A DNA stretch of 64,000 bases from Catajapyx aquilonaris. Its lineage: Eukaryota. The first letter of the stretch is position 1. Each line of letters opens with the position of its first letter. The translations under genes were made by a program, and so were the position numbers. Shown here piece by piece: positions 1 through 49,035 of this stretch. A model generated the notes under the pieces. It was not told the origin of the DNA. It was given only the letters and a program-made list of their open reading frames with translations, and searched no databases. The DNA is taken from positions 62,001-126,000 of the forward strand of contig KZ538096.1 in NCBI GenBank assembly GCA_000934665.2, in the 5' to 3' direction.

Positions 1-1679
1 AAAAAACTAAAAAATTAAATTTAACAATTAAGTGAGCAAAATGTTGAAATAAATACACTAATTCATTCATTACATCACGGCCAGCGACGACTTATAGTGT
101 GTACACCTAATATGTACAAAACAAAGCATCACATCTTCCCACAATGTCCTTCAGTTTAGAATATTACCTCACCGTGGGAATGAGTCGAATGACCGATACA
201 TATCAAGGCGGGTTGTTTGAAAGGGTAATGGCGGTTTCATGTGACAATGTTGCAGTTGTAGGCGCGCGTGATACGCCCCCNNGCCCCCCCCCCCCCCCCG
301 ACCCCATTGCATATATGGGTTGCCCCTGGGTAAGCGCAAGAGTCGCCCTTCGTTTGAGTTTATCACGAGAGATACTTTTGCTATATGATATATGAATGGT
401 TGGGACAAAATGGGAAGCAACCTACCTGGTGGCAGGCCGGGCGAAAGTGGAGGCTGCGAAGGGGCCGGTTTGCCCGGGGCAGATAAATTATGTCGAAAAA
501 GATCGGGGGTAGCGGAGGGAGAAGGGTCAGGAGGGGACGGACACTGGCGACAGGAGAGGGAGGGAAGCGCTGCCTGGGGCCAGTTGTAAATAAAACCTGC
601 AAAGAATATTACGGGTGTTGTGTGTACCCACCGCCACTTTCCCTATAAAAAGGGACATATTCAGTGAAGAGACCCAGACCACTAAGTCAAATAATAAAAA
701 TTGGCCTAATATATTACACACATAAATGGATGACAATTTATAAAGACATTATGCCTAATCAGAAACCAACCGCAATTCTCACGCTGCAAGAACCATCTAA
801 GCGGAACACTATATTATAGCTTATTGCCACAACGGGTCAGCATTTGTAGTCAATTCTTAATCCTGTAACTTATCCGAACACACAAAAACACCACAAAATG
901 AACTAAATAAATTAAAGGAAATAACTAGGATAGAATACCATTATAATACACGATTGTCTTGTCATTATTGTTAATTAAATGCCCTTTAAAATTCGCTGTC
1001 GACTAGTCTACTCTTAAATGTATGGTATACGTAAGCTAATCCCGCCATTAAATGCAGCTACTGGTCCGCATTGACACACTGTAATTATCGGTAACTGAGC
1101 AAATACGTCTTGTAACTTATTAGCTAACAACAGTGCTAATTATAAGGTAAGTAACTACAATAATTTCTTACAACACCTTTTTTCCCCATCCAGCATGACT
1201 ATGAAGTCACCATCCCACCCGCAACCCCCCATATTGAGATAGATGAACGAATCCTCTCCCACCCGAAGACAATCCGGACTGAATGAAGGCCTCGCACGGC
1301 AGGCAATATCCTCCCAACCCTCGAGTGTGTGTGACACCCCATCGGCAGTCCCTCCGCCTATGATTTCGTTTGCGCCGTCCTGGCACGTGATTCGCTTTAT
1401 TGCACGGAGAGCATGTGCACCGCTGTCAGGTCCACCAGAGTGTAGGAGTGCGCGGCAAGCATGCTGCTTATAGGCTGTGTCCCCCCACATCCATGTCAGC
1501 AAATCGTCCCGCCCTTTCTCTTCCTCCTTCCTACCCTGTCCCCGTCCCTCCGGCTTCTGGTGGCCCCGACTGATCTGCTAGTTGGTCTCGTCACCGCGCG
1601 CGCCCTCCATTCAGTGTGTTCCCCGACCTAGGGCTGTGTCGACGCAGGTGTATAAGCAGTGGAGCCCCCAGGATCAATC

Positions 1680-2070
1680 CCACATAAATTGGCTGCGCAT
1701 GGGGCCCGGATTGTTTGTGGTTATAAATTTCCCGAAGAGAGCGGCCGCCCGCACTCACTCGGGCTTTGCCGGCCGTTAGTCTTTACCACTCCTCGTGCTC
1801 CTGGGTCCTCCACCTGGACACCCACCCCCGCACAACCCTGCTTCGGGATATGACATAACGAATGGCCTGTGTTCATAAAACTGGAACCACGGGCGAGTAT
1901 TAGTTAAACACGTCGTAAACAAGGGCCGAGCACAAGCCGTGCGCGCGCGGAGCCCAAATTACGCGATCGCAGCGAGTGGACGTTATTTATGGGCCCGTAA
2001 AGTGATTACGGTTACCTTCCGCGCGCCGCCAAGGTTGAGAACTTGTGCTCCGAGTGGGATTTACAACACC
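1680..2070. promoter_or_regulatory. Cluster of Hox/Cdx-class binding motifs in a GC-rich island upstream of Scr
   Basis: CATAAA 1683, TTCATAAAA 1872, GTCGTAAA 1912, TTTATGG 1986 and CCCGTAAA 1994 sit in otherwise CpG-rich sequence. Confidence 0.4.
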
Positions 2071-2224
2071 TTTGTCCCGAGTGACCGTCCGGGTGGTATC
2101 ATATCCGTACCGAGCTATATAGTCGAGGGCCTCAACTTTGGGGGGCTGGTGTCCCATCTAGCAGAAAAAGAGTGTGAGGCAGCGGCGGCGTCCCGAATTT
2201 GCCTCCGCCAAAAAAGGGGGAGCG

Positions 2225-2340
2225 TGGCTGGCTGGCTGGCTGGCTGGCTGGCTGCTCCCCTCCTCCTCCTCCGCCTCTTCTCCCCACCCACCCCATCCCT
2301 TCATTCTCCTCCTCCACTACCACCACCACTTCCACCCCCA
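2225..2340. repeat. (GGCT)n and (CCT/CCA)n low-complexity tract
   Basis: Directly visible tandem units. Confidence 0.8.
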
Positions 2341-2764
2341 GTAGAAGGACCCCTCGGCTGATGAGTTGAGGACTTGGCCGCCGCCACAGAGGATCACGCT
2401 CTTCGGGGGCCCTCACTCGCTACTCATTATGCGCCAAGGTAGGTAGGAAGGTAGAGTAGGTGCCCCCCGAGTCTGTGGTCATCCGAGTCATTGGCACCCA
2501 ACAGTGGACCAATGGTGCCCAGTTCCTCCTAGATCAGTGACAACCTACCCTGTGCTCATCTGACTGGGGGTCGTGCGTTTTACTAGAATTGGTTCGGTCA
2601 TCCAGGCCGGAAGAAAAGAAGGAAGGAAGGAAGGAAAGAGTCAAACTTGTCCCGGGCCGTGCGCGGCGGCGCCCATCATCGCAATGAGAAGCGATAATCA
2701 GTGTGAGACTGAACTGTAGAGGGTGTACCCGGTGATTATGTACTTAACCTTCCACTCATGCGCG

Positions 2765-2940
2765 GTAGTGATTGGCGGAGCCCGGTCACGTGGTACGAGG
2801 GGTTGTGCCATATATGGAATAATTTGCTATTAAAAGTGTGCCAGAGGTTTCCTGGAGTGCAGTACAGCCATAATTCATCAAAATTGCGTGGAATATTGGA
2901 CACAATTATTGCCTCACCACAAATCACAGCCGACAAGCAG
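2765..2940 (+). promoter_or_regulatory. Hox5-type proximal promoter / 5' leader element
   Basis: Reverse CCAAT (GATTGG 2770), E-box GTCACGTG (2785), CArG-like CCATATATGG (2808), TATTAAAA (2828), CCATAATTCATCAAAATTG (2868) and CCACAAATCA (2917) lie immediately before the ATG. Confidence 0.65.
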
Positions 2941-3757
2941 ATGAGTTCGTACCAGTTTGTCAACTCTCTCGCTTCGTGTTATAACCAGCGCGGGCAAGAC
3001 AGTGCCGGGCCCGACTACTACAGCCCCAATGTGCAGTCATACCCGAATTGCTACTCGCCGCAAGTGTCCCCGGCGCCCCAACCCTACCCATACGGGACGT
3101 CCCAGGCCCATGTCCCCCACCTTCAAAACGGGGACTACCACAGTGCCCACGCGGCGCCTCCGCCGCCGCCGCCGCCACCGCAGCGAATAGGTGCCCATCA
3201 CAGTGCCAACCAAAGCCCCAGTGCAGCATCAGCGACAAACCACTCTCTGAACGCTGTACCCAGCTGCAAGTACGCCGATACCAGCGCTAGTTCGCCGCAA
3301 GACCTGAGCACCACGGGTGCCGCCAGTGCCCCATCTCAGCAGGCCACGGCGGCGGTGGCGGCTGCAGCAGCGGCAGCGGCGGCATCGGCGGCACAGGGCA
3401 ACGCCAACACCAACCCCAACTCCCAACCCCGAAGCCCAGACCAAAGTCAAGGGAACCAGCAGCAGCCTCCATCGACGCCCCAGCAGTCCGCCGGCAACCC
3501 GCCGACCTCACCGCAGCAGTCGTCCACGGGACAACCCCAGGGCACCCCCGCATCTCAACCCAGCAACCAGGGGACAACCAGCAACCAACAACCATCCTCT
3601 CAAGGCTCGCAACAGAACCAACAAACCGGACAACAACAGCAGGCCACCGGTCAACAAAGCTCCTCCAGCCAGTCCTCCTCCAACAACACCAAGGGCCAAT
3701 TTGCCGGCAACCCGCCCCAGATCTACCCTTGGATGAAGCGAGTGCATCTCGGACAGA
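2941..3757 (+). CDS. Scr: Sex combs reduced (Hox5), coding exon 1
   Basis: Starts MSSYQFVNSLASCY (octapeptide + LASCY) and contains PSCKY, SPQDLS, poly-P/poly-A/Q-rich tracts and PQIYPWMKRVHLGQ. It ends at the donor CAGA|GTAAGT (GT at 3758). Length 817 nt, phase 1. Confidence 0.97.
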
Positions 3758-6700
3758 GTAAGTTTCTCTTCTTATTCCATCTCCACCCTATAAATCACTC
3801 CCAGTGGTAGGGGGGCCTCACCCGAAGAGCCCCCGCTAACTCTTCGCTAACCGATCGGATAATGGACCAACCCGTCTCACCGCTCCATAATAGAATCTCC
3901 GGAAGCTCAGACCACGCGCTTCTTTTCCGAACCATGTGCTCGAGCCATGCTGCCTGATATACAAAAAAAGTTGGTCTAATCCCCTATTCTTCATGAATGA
4001 CAACAAGATGAATTCATTACGTAAATTCTTGACTTTTGCTCAACAACAAGGTGTATAAAAACATCCGCACGCGACCGATTTTCCGCCCTTTGCTACACCT
4101 ATTTCCCGCGTCCACTGCGGGCAATCAATCTACAAAGACATAAAAAACGGACGTCTTCCTCGTTTTTTGCGTGACAAAAATATCGCTGATATCCGCACAC
4201 AAATGTGGACGCAGTGTTTGCAGAGCGCCGTTTCACAGGTTGCTAGTAAATCTGTCGCCCGGCAAAAGGGACGTTATGGGGGGGAAGAGGTGGGGGGTTT
4301 GAGGGGAAAGACTAGGGGGGTTGGAACTAGGGTAGAGCCGGGGGGGTTTTAGGGGGGGTCGGAAATTTACGACCAGCCAAAGTTGTAAGGTGTAGAGTAT
4401 TCAGCAGACTACAAGTAGTCAATTACCGGCCGCCGTATCACACGGCGTCCATAAATAATGACACCCGAGCCAATTGGGGGCTCCCGCTAACTCTTAAAAG
4501 AGAATAAGCACGGGGTGAAAAAAAATTAAGGAACAATTAGCTACCGTAATTTTAACACACGCGCGGTTGAAATTTGACACCGTTGAAATTTGACACCCTA
4601 CATTTTAAAATTCACCCCTAAAAAGAAGCGTGACATGTATCACTAAAATCATATTAGTCATAGGTGGTAACGCAAATTTTTGTCTGTTTCTGAACTGAGG
4701 GGGTGTTGCTCCACAGGTATCCAGTGCACAATCTCGACCTTTAGAAGGGGGAAAAGGTAGCAAATTGACAGATCATCAATAAGAGGAAGGGCAGCCATTG
4801 GCACAGGCAAAATCGATGGGCCTGGCTTTCTAGAAGGCGAATGTTCTGTAAATTCTGTGGCAGGAGGTGAGCTATTGTTGAGATTCAACCATAGTTGAAT
4901 TTATCCGTAAACACAAAATAGCATGGGGTCTTGAAAAAAAAAACTCGCGAGACTACTCTTCAATTCCTGTTTCATTGCCAACCTTCGGACACTCGCGCGA
5001 GTTACAAACTTCTCGGCTGGAAGCTCCCCACTCTCAATGATTTATAGTTTGGCAAACCTGATTCAATGCCCCAGCTAAACAAAAGCTACCGCAATGAGCC
5101 ATAACTCAAACGCAATTGGATGCTATCAGCCCCGTGTTGCTGCGTATTTATCTTAGCTCGAAGATGGCCAAAGTTGAGGCTACCTATTCACTCTCTTTAT
5201 TGTCTTACTTGTCCCTTCATGTTTGCTGTTCCCATACGAGATCTCACTTTATCTGTCATTGATGCCAAACATAAACAGCACGGTTATGATTTACTTGTGC
5301 ATTGTGCTCTGTGATTTATATTAGGGCTGACCCTGTGGGAGCCAGTTTTATATGTACGCGTAGGCTCCGAGGGTGATAATTGTTTAAAATACTGCCGGTT
5401 TTTAATTTACTTATAGCCTTTAAAATATATATTCAATTTTTATGAACACGCCCGTCACGTCGTTTATCATCCTTGTTGTGTAACTGTTACTATTTATTTT
5501 TGCGACCGTTTTTTTTTGCATTGTCTAGCTAATACAAATTAATAGGACAAGTGGTTAAAACGTAATTTCGGGGATCATGCATTTTTTAGGGCTGTCTCTT
5601 CTGATAGACCGGCTGAAGTGTGTGCGGAATATTAACTCGGCATTCGTTAGCGGCTTGCAGCCGCGGAGTAATAACAATTAGGACACTTCAGTTTATGAGC
5701 AGATCAATAGTGGCAGTACCGTTTCATGACAACCTCTAATTAACCAGGCCCGACAATTGCTTTCTCGCCACCTGATTGCCATTGTTGGCGCGCCCTCCTG
5801 CTTGCCTGGCAAAAAAAGGACAATGGGTTGTAATTTGCTAGCTACATTATTAAAAAATATAACGCTACTGGTTATATAATATTCTGCTAAAAATTGACAA
5901 GGGCATATCATCAAATCACGACATCCCAGGGTTGGCAGCAGGCGTAGTAACGGCGGCATCTATTAGGCCACGATACACTCCAAAACCCGACAAGATTATA
6001 GGTTGTTAGTCGGAGGAAGAGCCGAGCAAGCGGTTCCCCTTCAACCCTGCCATGAAGCGGCAATATTTCCATGTGAGTTATGAGGCCCACCGTATATACA
6101 CCGTACAAGAAGTCCGGAGCTTAGAAGGGGGCGCTATTATAACACTCAACAGACATTGAGAGTCGCCATTTTTATTTTTATATACGTTAGATATATATTT
6201 TATGTCAGTTATATTCGCAGCAGTTGGCAGCCTTCTTGGGCTTCCATCCTGAGGAAAGGCCGAAGAATGTGTCAGAGGAGAACATGAACTTTCAGGTGAA
6301 CCTTCATCAATCATTGCGCTGAAGGAGCGCGCATCAGAGATGGTTTTGTGCCTTCGCTTCGATTGCATTCTCTTTTGTGTAGGGGGAAGGGAGAACTTGG
6401 GGGGGAGAAGGGGAGGAAGGAGGGGGGGAAAGAAACTCTGGGAGGGTAGAGGGTGGCTCAGGAAAATTTTTGCCAATCAGGGCTTTTCACCACAGCAGAC
6501 GATGATGACGAGCCAGAGCAAAACCCACGACATGGCTTTGGCTGCTGTCCGATTGTATCTTAGGGGGGGTTCGGTCAGGACTCCATTTCGGTCTGATGTG
6601 ATATAGGCCTGGGCCAAAGAGCAGTTTCTTGGTCTCAGTTTTGTTGAATTTAATGGCAGATTGTATCGTAATACCAAACCTGATTTTAAACTTTTCATCG

Positions 6701-8577: not shown

Positions 8578-8835
8578 TTTATAATTGATATTAAGGAGGT
8601 TGGCCCAGCATTGCCTTTCAACCTCCAAGGATATAGGGAAGGGTCGCTTCCGTATAATAGACCACAGCCGCTTCGGCTGTGGCCTATTATACGGAAGCGA
8701 CCCCGGAATTATCCTAGAAAGACCGTGGAAAACCACAGAAAACCACGGTCAGGGTTGCCGGCCCCGGGATTCGAACCTAGGACCTCCCGATTAGCAGTCG
8801 GACGCCCTATCCACTATGCCAACCTGCTTCGGTAT
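8578..8835 (-). mobile_element. tRNA-derived SINE, family A (copy 1)
   Basis: Minus-strand head with A box TGGCATAGTGG and B box GGTTCGAATCC; 12-bp TSD AGGTACTGGCAC (8566-8577 / 8836-8847); four more copies in the window. Confidence 0.9.
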
Positions 8836-17387: not shown

Positions 17388-17753
<366 letters not shown>

Positions 17754-25429: not shown

Positions 25430-25506
25430 GCCCTCGTGGTCTAACTGGCAGGACACGGGCAGCCTTCTTGCAGCCCGAGGTCCGGGTTCGAGTCCCGGCG
25501 GGGGCG
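25430..25506 (+). pseudogene. tRNA-like sequence (Glu/Asp-type framework) with aberrant anticodon loop
   Basis: Acceptor GCCCTCG/CGGGGGC, D arm GTCT..GGAC, stem CGGGC/GCCCG around a 12-nt loop, and T arm CCGGG-TTCGAGT-CCCGG. Confidence 0.65.
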
Positions 25507-47613: not shown

Positions 47614-49035
47614 TATAATATTATGATATGTCATATGTAACAGCGCATTTCAACAGTCAATAGCTAAACATTCTGCGGAGATGCTTCCGCAGGACACTCA
47701 ATTTACTTTGAGGAGGCCTCCCCATCACATAACATTATCAGGCCTTGATAAATATCCACTTGTCCCAAGTCTGGGCGCCTACTGAAAAATCGAACCACAG
47801 TTTTCCAGCACTATATACCCAACATCAACGTGACTTACAAGATGTGAGGGCGTGCTATATAGGTTGAAAGGCAGATAGGCCTACAAGTAGCCCATGTTCT
47901 GCCCTGATACGCCAGCCTTCAGAAACAGAATCTATCAAATTCGAGCCACGTCTAGGCCGTAATTCTACGGTTAGCCTATAAATCTCCTCCAATGCTGGGT
48001 CTGCAGGCCAGTCTTTTTTTTTCTGTCCCCTCTGGAGAAGTAAACAGCGATTCAGTCAAGTGGTGGATAGGATGGTGGCTCATATTCCTCTCATCCACCT
48101 GTTAGAGTGCAATCTATGGACAAAATCTTACAAGTTTGTTCAAAATACATTTTTGTAGATTCATTTTCTAAACCTGAAAAAAAACTCGAACCTTTTACTT
48201 CTCTTCTAAAAGTCCATACCTTATCCAAACTCTTGATATTCTGAAGGTGTGGTGGAAAGGTAGGCAAGAGGGTGTAGTCTCCCCCTCCTTGTGGACTCCC
48301 CCACATCAGCTGAATTCCCTTGAGCTTCTAAAGCAAGGCCCTCCCGGGTCCCCATTGGCCACCATGTCCCGTGCGGTCATTTATTCCTTGGCCGAATATA
48401 AGGACAGCTGCTGGGATGGGGATTATCACGGGAACCCCTAAGCTTCCAACGGGCTGCATTCTAATGGCGTACTGCCTACTGCGTTTCCTACGTGAAAGCG
48501 ATCGGTAAAATATTCCGTTGTCTTTCAAAATACTTGTAATTGGCACGGAACATATGGGATGCGCTCTAATGCCGGATGGGTCGGATTTATGGCTGACATC
48601 TTTTGCCCTCACCTCTCGGATATTACTTTTGGATGGTTTTTTTTTTTCTCGGGCCCATAGCTTTGGGGTTCGTGTCATGGATTTCTTGCTTCTTGCGAGA
48701 TGGTTTAGATATGGGATGGTTTTAACACGCGATGTTTAAGTAGCGCCTGATTATATGTGCATATTTGATATTGGGAGGTGATGAAGTGCAAAGTAAAACG
48801 TTGAAACATCGTTATAATCGTAAAAGTACAAAATAACTTGTTACTGAGATAATTAGTATTTAATAAAAAAATATAAGAATACTGTATGCCATTTGTACCG
48901 ACAGCACATTACGTCTAATGAGCTCGTATTTAAATGAAAACTGCGCTGCAACACATATTTTAACTTAACAGGTATAAGGCTGTTCGAAAGGACTCATGCA
49001 TGATGCCAGAATATTTTTGCTCTGTGGCCATTTAT

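Follow-up and report, generated by a model that had tools for sequence, protein, structure and literature searches.

The window (the whole 64,000-nucleotide stretch of Catajapyx aquilonaris DNA analysed here) carries a Scr/Hox5 gene on the forward strand. Its coding exon 1 (2941..3757) runs from the ATG to a phase 1 splice donor with the GT at 3758, and its homeobox exon (17452..17753) is entered through an acceptor AG at 17450-17451 and ends with a TAA stop at 17751-17753. The exon 1 translation opens with MSSYQFVNSLASCY, continues as ...QIYPWMKRVHLGQ and is 54% identical to centipede Scr over 125 aa. The gene was identified by its Scr-type homeodomain, YPWM motif, MSSY(Q)FVNSL N-terminus and two exons, and in a spliced RNA contig from a close relative position 3757/3760 is joined to exon-2 sequence. 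No second Hox start was found in the 64-kb window. Directly 5' of the Scr/Hox5 ATG (2941) lies a block of about 170 non-coding bases. A preliminary description of this DNA had placed the block at 2765-2943, a range that is correct and ends on the G of the start codon. All six of the ordered motifs that it listed were present in the window, displaced by at most 5 bases: GATTGG (2770-2775), GTCACGTG (2785-2792), CCATATATGG (2808-2817), CCATAATTCATCAAAATTG (2868-2886), CCACAAATCA (2917-2926) and ATGAGTTCGTAC (2941-2952).

Leaders for comparison were obtained from a coding-anchored metagenome scan, which supplied teleost Hox-A5a and Hox-B5b starts and bivalve, mite and insect Hox5/Scr starts. In all, 39 loci entered the comparison, and motif patterns were counted in 267 kb (133.5 kb on each of two strands), the window included. 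Factor assignments to the elements described below (NF-Y, USF/TFE and homeodomain types) are putative, being taken from the motifs.

The first element, all being on the forward strand, is ATTGG (2771..2775), an inverted CCAAT box of NF-Y type located 11 nt upstream of the E-box. It is invariant in the window and three mites, and is also found in two bivalves, 10-12 nt from CACGTG. When both strands of the 64-kb window were searched for ATTGG-N6-18-CACGTG, this was the single pair. The teleost leaders are without the CCAAT box and have GACTGG in its place. The class-B E-box TCACGTG (2786..2792; USF/TFE type) follows, its CACGTG core invariant in all eight aligned leaders; its distance to the ATG is 145-165 nt for the window, the mites, the bivalves and teleost Hox-B5b, and 227 nt for teleost Hox-A5a. 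The CArG-type box CCATATATGG (CC[A/T]6GG; 2808..2817) begins, in the window, 21 nt past the start of the E-box. Teleost Hox-A5a and Hox-B5b have CCATATTTGG 21-22 nt past the start of theirs, and the CArG box of the window is absent from the mites. A TATA-like or MADS-like A/T box with its flank, GCTATTAAAAGTGTGCCAGAGGTTTCCTGGAG (2826..2857), is missing from the list in the preliminary description and is the best-conserved arthropod block, near-invariant in the window and the three mites. Its GCTATTAAAAGTGTGCC portion also survives in L007, a springtail-like locus, where its distance to the ATG is greater by about 400 nt. MAFFT pairs this arthropod A/T box with the teleost CCATATTTGG(G)TGCC, and box-to-box homology is therefore ambiguous.

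The 3' part of the block opens with a run of TAAT/ATTA-core sites of homeodomain type, GCCATAATTCATC-AAAATTGCG-TGGAATAT-TGGACAC-AATTA (2867..2908). About 20 of 22 positions of its CCATAATTCATCA(T)AAATTG(T/C)G stretch are identical in teleost Hox-A5a, and the homeodomain-type block is also visible, in translated form, in the leader of ORF P0244 from a trombidiform-like mite. The last element, CCACAAATCA (2917..2926), is identical at 10 of 10 positions in teleost Hox-A5a (L032 and L034). Teleost Hox-B5b and mite L030 have CAAATC, whereas mite L005 has CGAATCA; a motif of CCACAAATCA type is missing from mite L001 and the bivalve leaders.

The window and the leaders of three oribatid mites are 73-76% identical over positions -177 to -20 (about 150 nt), compared with 56-59% for the same pairs in the first 150 nt of coding sequence and 36-38%, no better than unrelated sequence, in the leader farther upstream. 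Local alignment of the window with the three oribatid leaders gave z = 33-44, and none of 500 dinucleotide shuffles scored as high. A partial block was found in three more arthropod loci: L014 (E = 5.5e-6), the springtail-like L007 (5.7e-5) and the astigmatid-mite-like L039 (7.2e-5). No block was found in 15 of the 21 arthropod-type loci, in which 318-1000 nt upstream of the ATG were examined. These 15 are mostly insects, in which the block was not found near the ATG, together with two springtail-like and two unplaced loci.

The block is transcribed in arthropods. An 813-nt contig from an RNA library of the close relative covers 2652-3176 and a further 288 bases 5' of a masked repeat, so that read-through begins at least about 577 nt upstream of the ATG; the unconserved upstream part of the transcribed leader accordingly spans 2364..2770 on the forward strand, with an approximate 5' limit drawn from this contig. 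Conservation stops abruptly beyond about -180 inside the same transcript. Mean depth was 46.7 for the block-spanning contig and 45.8 for the spliced coding contig, and with depths so nearly equal a dominant internal start is unlikely in that sample. Three mite contigs contain the full coding sequence without the intron, and are for this reason probably cDNA; their leaders of 487, 528 and 596 nt all include the block. Presence in mature mRNA is therefore observed in the RNA contig of the close relative and in these three intron-less mite contigs, insofar as the latter are cDNA. All of this RNA evidence consists of contigs, from which transcription starts are not readable, and for the window it is confined to the parts of 1500-4000 that the contigs cover; the main arthropod mRNA appears to begin some 500-600 nt upstream, so that the block is read through. 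The three mite leaders contain nine upstream ATGs, where 25.1 were expected (Poisson P = 2e-4), a depletion that gives them the appearance of a scanned 5' UTR. Two mini-uORFs are common to the three mites, one of seven codons at about -205 to -211 and one, ATG CGC TAT TAA, within the block.

Outside the arthropods the likeness takes the form of short blocks in order, with no continuous alignment. The vertebrate motifs that the preliminary description had listed (CACGTG, CCATATTTGG, CCATAATTCATCATAAATTG, CCACAAATCA and ATGAGCTC) were found letter for letter and in the same order in L032 and L034, two loci that encode an exon-1 protein with 97-99% identity to teleost Hox-A5a. The teleost Hox-B5b locus (L010) has CACGTG, CCATATTTGG, TAATTCAT and CAAATC in order, and two bivalve loci (L003 and L035) have ATTGG, TCACGTG and CATAATTCAT spaced from the ATG almost as they are in the window. 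Relative to the ATG, the window places ATTGG at -170, CACGTG at -154, the CArG box at -133, TAATTCAT at -70 and CAAATC at -21. The corresponding positions for CACGTG, CArG, TAATTCAT and CAAATC are -159, -137, -88 and -28 in teleost Hox-B5b and -227, -206, -151 and -95 in teleost Hox-A5a, and the bivalves have ATTGG at -160, CACGTG at -145 and TAATTCAT at -68. Since ordered motifs occur in teleost Hox-A5a and Hox-B5b and in bivalve leaders, the earlier proposal that arthropods and vertebrates have a colinear non-coding block in common at the Hox5 start is borne out, for vertebrates represented by teleosts, and extends to molluscs. Both the A5a and B5b paralogues carry the blocks, which are therefore older than the vertebrate genome duplications.

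The arrangement is specific to these leaders. The composite CACGTG-N50-110-TAATTCAT had nine matches in the 267 kb scanned, all nine in sense-strand Hox5/Scr leaders. CATAATTCAT had eight matches in 133.5 kb x 2 strands, again all in sense-strand Hox5/Scr leaders, namely those of the window, mites, bivalves and teleost Hox-A5a. In arthropods, molluscs and vertebrates alike the block is in sense orientation and is located 20-230 nt 5' of the Hox5/Scr ATG.

Statistical support across phyla differed between loci and between methods. Against shuffled sequence, the comparison put forward in the preliminary description, Smith-Waterman alignment with the teleost Hox-A5a leader exceeded expectation (z = 6.2; 1/500 shuffles); the same alignment was not significant for the Hox-B5b and L035 leaders. 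Tile-rank tests used real sequence as background. In a cheap-gap tile test with Hox-A5a, none of the 1242 other 200-nt tiles of the window matched the score of the Scr leader. One of 1242 did so with Hox-B5b, one with bivalve L003 and 22 with bivalve L035, compared with 92 to 760 for the controls (three chance loci, the unclassified L016 and the insect L006). When the window leader was used as the query on 1286 tiles from the 39 loci, Hox5/Scr leader tiles took ranks 1-16; the ranks bearing on vertebrate-protostome significance were 8 and 16, the Hox-B5b leader was 24th and L035 fell outside the top 40. In a chain test restricted to arthropod-invariant blocks, the counts were 2 and 9 of 1582 for the bivalves and 71 of 1582 for Hox-A5a, and Hox-B5b was not significant (573 of 1582). 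Generic profile searches did not reach significance: an arthropod nhmmer profile gave E = 0.11 on the teleost Hox-A5a leader, and profiles made with the vertebrate leaders, the bivalve leaders or the two together did not recover the window leader. The best window match of the reciprocal profiles, at 47761-47890 (E = 0.06), is without any Hox feature and was discarded as a chance match. An exact-6-mer chain statistic was set aside as noisy, the chance locus L009 having reached 4/200. The evidence for the block at Hox-B5b is, by these sequence comparisons, borderline.

The block is conserved in order, orientation and spacing, sits at the orthologous ATG and, in arthropods, is transcribed. Its best explanation is a promoter-proximal cis-regulatory module of Hox5/Scr that goes back to the protostome-deuterostome ancestor and works chiefly as DNA, a reading to which a probability of roughly 0.6 is given. 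We infer the promoter role by analogy with mouse Hoxa genes, whose equivalent E-box adds to promoter activity. At its 5' end the module would present an NF-Y-type inverted CCAAT box and, at a distance of 10-12 nt, the USF/TFE-type E-box TCACGTG, in its middle an A/T-rich CArG/TATA-like box, and toward its 3' end a run of TAAT/ATTA-core sites (ATAATTCAT, AAATTG, AATTA and CAAATCA) of the kind recognized by homeodomain proteins; these last sites may feed Hox/TALE or other homeodomain input near the gene start. A CCAAT box and a palindromic E-box at fixed spacing is, judged as a motif pattern, a promoter signature. If the A at 2861 of a CAGT is numbered +1, ATTGG (2771) falls at -90, CACGTG (2787) at -74 and TATTAAAA (2828) at -33. 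These spacings in the window fit a classical promoter and therefore suggest a putative internal or alternative start about 80 nt upstream of the ATG; canonical promoter spacing is also seen, at the motif level only, in mites L005 and L030. In the available text of published work, mutation of the Hoxa5 E-box in mouse lowers promoter activity and the region termed the Hoxa5 IRES overlaps the promoter and transcription start (PMC9456764), USF activates the HOXB4 promoter (PMC2193192), and, of the 25 segments known to be conserved across bilaterians, 12 are promoters, which contain CCAAT, E-box and CArG boxes (PMC10735318).

A credible though unlikely alternative is that the block works as RNA, that is, as a 5' UTR element of the Hox5/Scr mRNA that steers translation or stability through sequence-specific RNA-binding proteins, short uORFs or a form of ribosome recruitment like that suggested for Hoxa leaders in vertebrates. 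The block does lie inside a contig at the mature-mRNA level in the close relative, three probable mite cDNAs contain it, the mite leaders are depleted of upstream ATGs and share mini-uORFs, and conservation ends sharply upstream of about -180 within one transcript. The distance from block to ATG is also kept in the window, mites, bivalves and teleost Hox-B5b, and such constancy across phyla is more simply explained by a role in RNA; however, the block lies about 400 nt from the ATG in the springtail-like locus and about 70 nt farther out in Hox-A5a, so the distance is not strictly required. Against an RNA role, no conserved structure was found in the block: RNAalifold gave -10.8 kcal/mol (covariation term +0.19) and a double change in one of 27 pairs, the single-sequence minimum free energy had a z-score of 0.30, with 124 of 200 shuffles folding as well, and an Rfam search matched no family. 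The best cross-phylum pieces are, moreover, textbook DNA motifs (the palindromic CACGTG, and CCAAT at helical-turn spacing), and the equivalent mouse Hoxa5 region behaves as a promoter overlapping the transcription start in the portions of that report available (PMC9456764).

The two roles could also be combined, the CCAAT/E-box pair acting at the DNA level and the part from TAATTCAT to the ATG in RNA. In a specific and rather doubtful version, the block would be a dual-use element more than 500 million years old, with promoter DNA in its 5' half (CCAAT/E-box) and a sequence-specific site of Hox5 translational control in its 3' half, read in the mRNA as ATAATTCAT...AAATTGCG...CAAATCA. This 3' half, which is transcribed in arthropods, keeps a constant spacing to the ATG.

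It is improbable that the likeness across phyla arose by convergence or chance, with generic promoter motifs recurring under similar Hox regulators and true homology confined to arthropods. The generic cross-phylum profile searches were not significant, Hox-B5b and L035 were borderline in several tests, and the motif list was picked after the fact in the preliminary description. Pairs of CCAAT and E-box are common to several Hox promoters in the published text seen (PMC9456764), and such a pair also precedes the unclassified Hox-like loci L016 and L033. Yet order, orientation and spacing agree at the orthologous ATG in four lineages, the homeodomain-type block and CCACAAATCA match Hox-A5a at about 20/22 and 10/10 positions, and the composite patterns (9/9 and 8/8) are confined to Hox5/Scr leaders in the 267 kb scanned. 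The rank tests against real background sequence and the presence of the blocks in both the A5a and B5b paralogues likewise argue for shared descent.

An N-terminal Scr extension from an in-frame ATG at 2758 has next to no chance of being correct: the ORF 2758-3810 is stop-free and in frame with the Scr ATG, but its 61 codons from 2758 to 2941 would be stop-free with a likelihood of about 5% in random sequence, in-frame stops occur at most 80 codons upstream in mites L001 and L030, the bivalves and both teleost leaders, and indels between species shift the frame inside the conserved block, so that the reading frame is not conserved, the extension was rejected and the block is non-coding. A word-index protein search with the translated leader matched two proteins among 30 candidates.

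Read as a promoter-proximal module, the block is a candidate member of the small set of regulatory sequences that have persisted since arthropods and vertebrates last had an ancestor in common; recognizable non-coding DNA is very rarely shared by the two groups. The most sensitive published screen, as far as its available text reports, lists 25 segments, none of them at a Hox gene (PMC10735318); the block would add the first Hox-cluster example to the bilaterian-conserved promoter elements. Its occurrence in the window arthropod, in acariform mites, partly in a springtail, in bivalves and in the two teleost Hox5 paralogues would point to NF-Y/USF-type and homeodomain-type input connected to Hox5 as early as the bilaterian ancestor. 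The block is relevant, too, to the dispute, set out in the available text of PMC9456764, over whether Hox leaders are promoters or translational elements. If dual use were true, arthropods would offer a natural system for this promoter-versus-IRES dispute, with the whole block inside the main mRNA; DNA-versus-RNA reporter tests would be clean there because the conserved sequence lies well inside that mRNA. Elements made of 6-20-nt blocks with free spacers can escape genome screens based on E-values.

No earlier account of conservation in the Hox5/Scr leader was found in the text of the literature, where alignments printed in figures could be missed. The original proposal of a Hoxa5 IRES is reportedly that of Xue et al. 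2015. The mouse/human Hoxa5 proximal promoter, or 'IRES-like' leader (Akirtava, May and McManus 2022, PMC9456764), resembles the block in the text available, lying directly 5' of the Hox5 ATG with a conserved CACGTG. As in the arthropod read-through, the mouse Hoxa5 proximal promoter lies within longer transcripts from distal promoters, according to the accessible part of PMC2868907. The Hoxa5 work covers vertebrates only and stresses the E-box, and the portions available describe neither the ATAATTCAT/AAATTG/CAAATCA blocks nor a presence in arthropods or molluscs (PMC9456764). In arthropods, unlike mouse Hoxa5, the main transcript appears to start far upstream.

NF-Y is said to have been placed at the HOXB4 promoter by Zhu et al. 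2003 and Gilthorpe et al. 2002, which would give that promoter, like the block, an NF-Y-type CCAAT box next to a USF-type E-box. The same promoter, with USF-1/2 (Giannola et al. 2000, PMC2193192, in the text available), has a USF-type E-box upstream of a Hox gene, as in the block, and Hoxa9 has an E-box and CAAT box, the same type of pairing (PMC9456764, likewise in part). HOXB4 and Hoxa9 are members of different paralogue groups, and the descriptions available for them do not include the Hox5-specific blocks farther downstream. Paralogous conserved non-coding sequences of HOXA5/HOXB5 (Matsunami and Saitou 2012, PMC3595034) show the same A5/B5 sharing as L032 versus L010; the available text does not state where within the loci its two A5/B5 pairs lie, and reports that vertebrate paralogous loci share no conservation with amphioxus non-coding DNA.

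The segments of Frith and Ni 2023 (PMC10735318), at the Nr2f, Tbx2/3, Sp5, Ptch and Rfx1/3 promoters, contain near-perfect CCAAT boxes (including the reverse ATTGG), E-boxes and one CArG box in the text available, which also raises a possible RNA function. Unlike those segments as described there, the Hox5 block fails a generic cross-phylum E-value test with nhmmer. This failure may explain why such screens miss the Hox5 block. HB1, reportedly described by Haerry and Gehring in 1996/1997, is said to be a cluster of homeodomain sites in Hox introns of Drosophila Dfd and mouse Hoxa4/Hoxa7. HB1 differs from the block in being intronic, in belonging to other paralogue groups and in having no CCAAT/E-box part, and sets a precedent for it in the arthropod-vertebrate similarity of a TAAT-core cluster inside a Hox gene.

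The Scr/Hox5 start codon lies at 2941 on the forward strand, and reading of the sequence over 2400-3900 together with a motif scan placed upstream of it, on the same strand and in the order stated by the preliminary description, GATTGG (2770-2775), GTCACGTG (2785-2792), CCATATATGG (2808-2817), CCATAATTCATCAAAATTG (2868-2886) and CCACAAATCA (2917-2926). This leader block is a real feature. The exon opened by the ATG encodes MSSYQFVNSLASCY...QIYPWMKRVHLGQ and ends at a GTAAGT donor at 3758; a homeobox exon with a Scr-type homeodomain is found at 17452-17753, 13.7 kb downstream of exon 1. The closest named protein was a centipede Scr (54% identity over the first 125 residues, 82% around YPWM), and by this match the animal was read as an arthropod, probably of the myriapods. 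GC content of exon 1 and the leader is 0.58, compared with 0.36-0.50 elsewhere in the window. The leader also contains (TGGC)n and (GGAA)n microsatellites (2225-2254 and 2605-2646), and an alanine run in exon 1 is encoded by a GCGGCGGCA repeat (3349-3393). A tRNA-Ser(GCU)-like sequence occurs in the Scr intron (8756-8827, reverse strand; 33 bits in Rfam, where the gathering score is 29, with ARAGORN in agreement), and a second, odd one at 25430-25506 (forward strand) was called by ARAGORN only; both may be tRNA-derived repeats instead of genes. Downstream of Scr, the 64-kb window contains no match to mir-10 or any other Rfam family that reaches the gathering score.

Comparison DNA was drawn from one metagenome scan whose pattern, a back-translated MSSY(Q)FVNS, was restricted to the coding start, so that leaders were sampled independently of the hypothesis. 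Ten of the 39 loci obtained were chance matches (ORFs of 6-58 codons), and each of the remaining 29 is the start of a Hox-type exon 1 (21 arthropod Scr type, three vertebrate, two marine invertebrate and three unclassified). Loci were named from two protein searches and BLAST against the named matches. L010 is a teleost Hox-B5b (96% identity), L032 and L034 represent one teleost Hox-A5a gene (97-99%), and L003 and L035 are bivalves, with 79% and 94% identity to a Mercenaria protein automatically named Hox-B4-like, yet whose homeodomain reads [16 protein letters not shown]. Oribatid mites are represented by L001, L005 and L030 (87% Oppia, 96% Oppiella); L039 resembles astigmatid mites, L002, L007 and L008 resemble springtails, and the remainder are mostly insects (Blattodea-, Hymenoptera-, louse-, mayfly-like and others). 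The unclassified loci L016 (1012-1373, reverse strand), L033 and L021 share a Hox-like exon 1 (MSSYFVNSLMQRYCNHG...YPIYPWMTRMH) to which none of the named proteins compared is closely related. An ATTGG-N12-CACGTG pair also stands 318 nt before the ATG in L016 and L033, so the pairing of CCAAT box and E-box may predate Hox5 or extend beyond it.

Among arthropods, the window and the three oribatid leaders are colinear from ATTGG through the ATG. Identity is 73-76% over -177..-20 relative to the ATG, 56-59% in the initial 150 nt of the coding region and 36-38% further upstream, where the leader is unconserved even between mites; local alignments gave z = 33-44. The strongest arthropod block, GCTATTAAAAGTGTGCC(A/G)GAGGTTTCCTGGAG at 2826-2857, was absent from the preliminary description. 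An arthropod profile matched parts of the element in locus L014 (E = 5.5e-6) and in the astigmatid-mite-like locus (E = 7.2e-5), and the translated block is present in a trombidiform-like mite ORF (P0244). In springtail-like L007 (E = 5.7e-5) the match is displaced to -474..-383; the GCTATTAAAAGTGTGCC and ATAATTCAT blocks survive there, at some 400 nt greater distance from the ATG and with no CCAAT box or CACGTG nearby, so the element's parts are separable in evolution. In 15 of the arthropod-type loci (21 in all), most of them from insects but including two springtail-like and two unplaced ones, the block was not found in the 318-1000 nt upstream of the ATG; it may have been lost there, or may lie next to a remote first exon. 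Short-range constraint finds support in contigs of three other runs: 2774-3026 is unchanged in same-species contigs, organism B has nine differences and three indels in 2652-2941 versus 29 and nine in 2917-3393 (the coding differences listed being third codon positions), and organism C has one difference in 2772-2913.

The order of motifs extends beyond arthropods. Relative to the ATG, the window carries ATTGG at -170, CACGTG at -154, a CArG box (CCATATATGG) at -133, TAATTCAT at -70, AATTG (AATTGCG) at -59 and CAAATC at -21. Teleost A5a has CACGTG at -227, the CArG box (CCATATTTGG) at -206, TAATTCAT at -151, AATTG (AATTGTG) at -139 and CAAATC at -95; B5b has CACGTG at -159, CCATATTTGG at -137, TAATTCAT at -88 and CAAATC at -28, with no AATTG. 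Both teleost leaders lack ATTGG and have GACTGG in its place. Bivalves have ATTGG at -160, CACGTG at -145 and TAATTCAT at -68, and none of the CArG box, AATTG or CAAATC; the CArG box is also missing from mites. A5a reads CCATAATTCATCATAAATTGTG where the window reads CCATAATTCATCAAAATTGCG, and CCACAAATCA is exact in A5a; the vertebrate leader motifs given in the preliminary description were therefore accurate to the letter in a teleost Hox-A5a. What the leaders have in common is a series of 6-20-nt blocks joined by free spacers.

Both CACGTG-N50-110-TAATTCAT (nine matches) and CATAATTCAT (eight matches) hit only sense-strand Hox5/Scr leaders when 133.5 kb was searched on both strands. In a comparison with real background sequence, the Scr leader came first or second among about 1243 window tiles for A5a, B5b and L003, and with the window leader as query the first 16 of 1286 tiles from all loci were Hox5/Scr leaders (A5a 8th, L003 16th; B5b ranked 24th, and the L035 leader was not in the top 40). 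With blocks defined solely by arthropod invariants, the values were 2/1582 and 9/1582 for the bivalves, 71/1582 for A5a and 573/1582 for B5b. Smith-Waterman alignments of the window leader with B5b and L035 were not significant. Nhmmer reached only E = 0.11 on A5a, and profiles from vertebrate or bivalve leaders did not find the window's leader. Together with the low ranks of B5b and L035, the A5a and B5b values for arthropod-invariant blocks, GACTGG in the teleosts and the missing CArG box of the mites, these results weaken the case across phyla. We estimate a probability of about 0.85-0.9 that the window leader is homologous with its bivalve and teleost counterparts. A 15-mer, AAGACAGTTTTATAG, is common to hymenopteran-like L024 (about -420) and bivalve L003 (about -45); the matching place reads ACAGGTTTATG and ACAGGATTATAG in teleost leaders and GGACACAATTATTG in the window, and may be a further colinear block (a TTTAT-core site).

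The leader is transcribed. In X5, an RNA library of a close relative (98% identical), an 813-nt contig covers 2652-3176 at mean depth 46.7 and extends 288 bases more, 5' of a masked repeat; in a second contig (depth 45.8), 3757/3760 is spliced to exon-2 sequence. Depth was 2.5 for an intron piece and 5-27 for contigs further upstream. RNA contigs do not reveal transcript starts; the equal mean depths argue that the main mRNA of this sample includes the whole leader over at least ~577 nt. Three oribatid contigs carry the full coding sequence without the intron present in the window, L014 and P0244, and are thus probably cDNAs, intron loss in oribatids being a possible alternative; their leaders measure 487, 528 and 596 nt. 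Upstream ATGs are depleted in these leaders (nine observed, 25.1 expected, P = 2e-4), and L001, L005 and L030 share two mini-uORFs (at -205 to -211 and -114 to -126), one of seven codons and one, ATG CGC TAT TAA, that falls within the conserved TATAATGCGCTATTAAAAG block; the window carries ATG GAA TAA (2814) instead. Long leaders, depletion and shared mini-uORFs fit a genuine scanned 5' UTR. An element acting at the RNA level, which these observations would suit, is nevertheless the less likely reading; against it, conserved RNA structure, covariation and Rfam searches of the leader block were all negative. The boldest reading is that the block may have a dual role. A coding leader was rejected, its frame not being coding: from an ATG at 2758, 61 stop-free codons (2758-2940) run in frame into the Scr start, and this frame looks accidental as it is not kept in relatives. 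It could give an N-terminally extended Scr in this species if the long leader is scanned.

On balance we lean towards a promoter-proximal module acting at the DNA level. The furthest-conserved pieces are classical DNA sites, and relative to CAGT (2861, +1) the window has a promoter-type spacing, with ATTGG at -90, CACGTG at -74 and TATTAAAA at -33, identical in mites L005 and L030. In mouse Hoxa5, the 'IRES' region overlaps a promoter and TSS, its E-box adds to promoter activity (PMC9456764), and distal-promoter transcripts run through the proximal promoter (PMC2868907). The arthropod arrangement looks alike, with long transcripts through the proximal region, which favours the DNA-level module over an RNA-level element; the block would act as promoter-proximal DNA traversed by longer transcripts.

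No account of a Hox5/Scr leader block common to arthropods, molluscs and vertebrates was found in the literature; figures, bioRxiv supplements and non-open journals lay outside the scope, and an earlier description is possible. Published work describes conserved E-boxes in vertebrate Hoxa leaders, with a CAAT box at Hoxa9 (PMC9456764), USF acting at HOXB4 (PMC2193192), and paralogous non-coding sequences common to HOXA5 and HOXB5, in a study that found none in common with amphioxus (PMC3595034). Frith and Ni report 25 bilaterian-conserved segments, none at a Hox gene, and 12 of the 25 are promoters bearing CCAAT boxes, E-boxes and CArG boxes (PMC10735318), kinds of site that also occur in the Hox5/Scr block.
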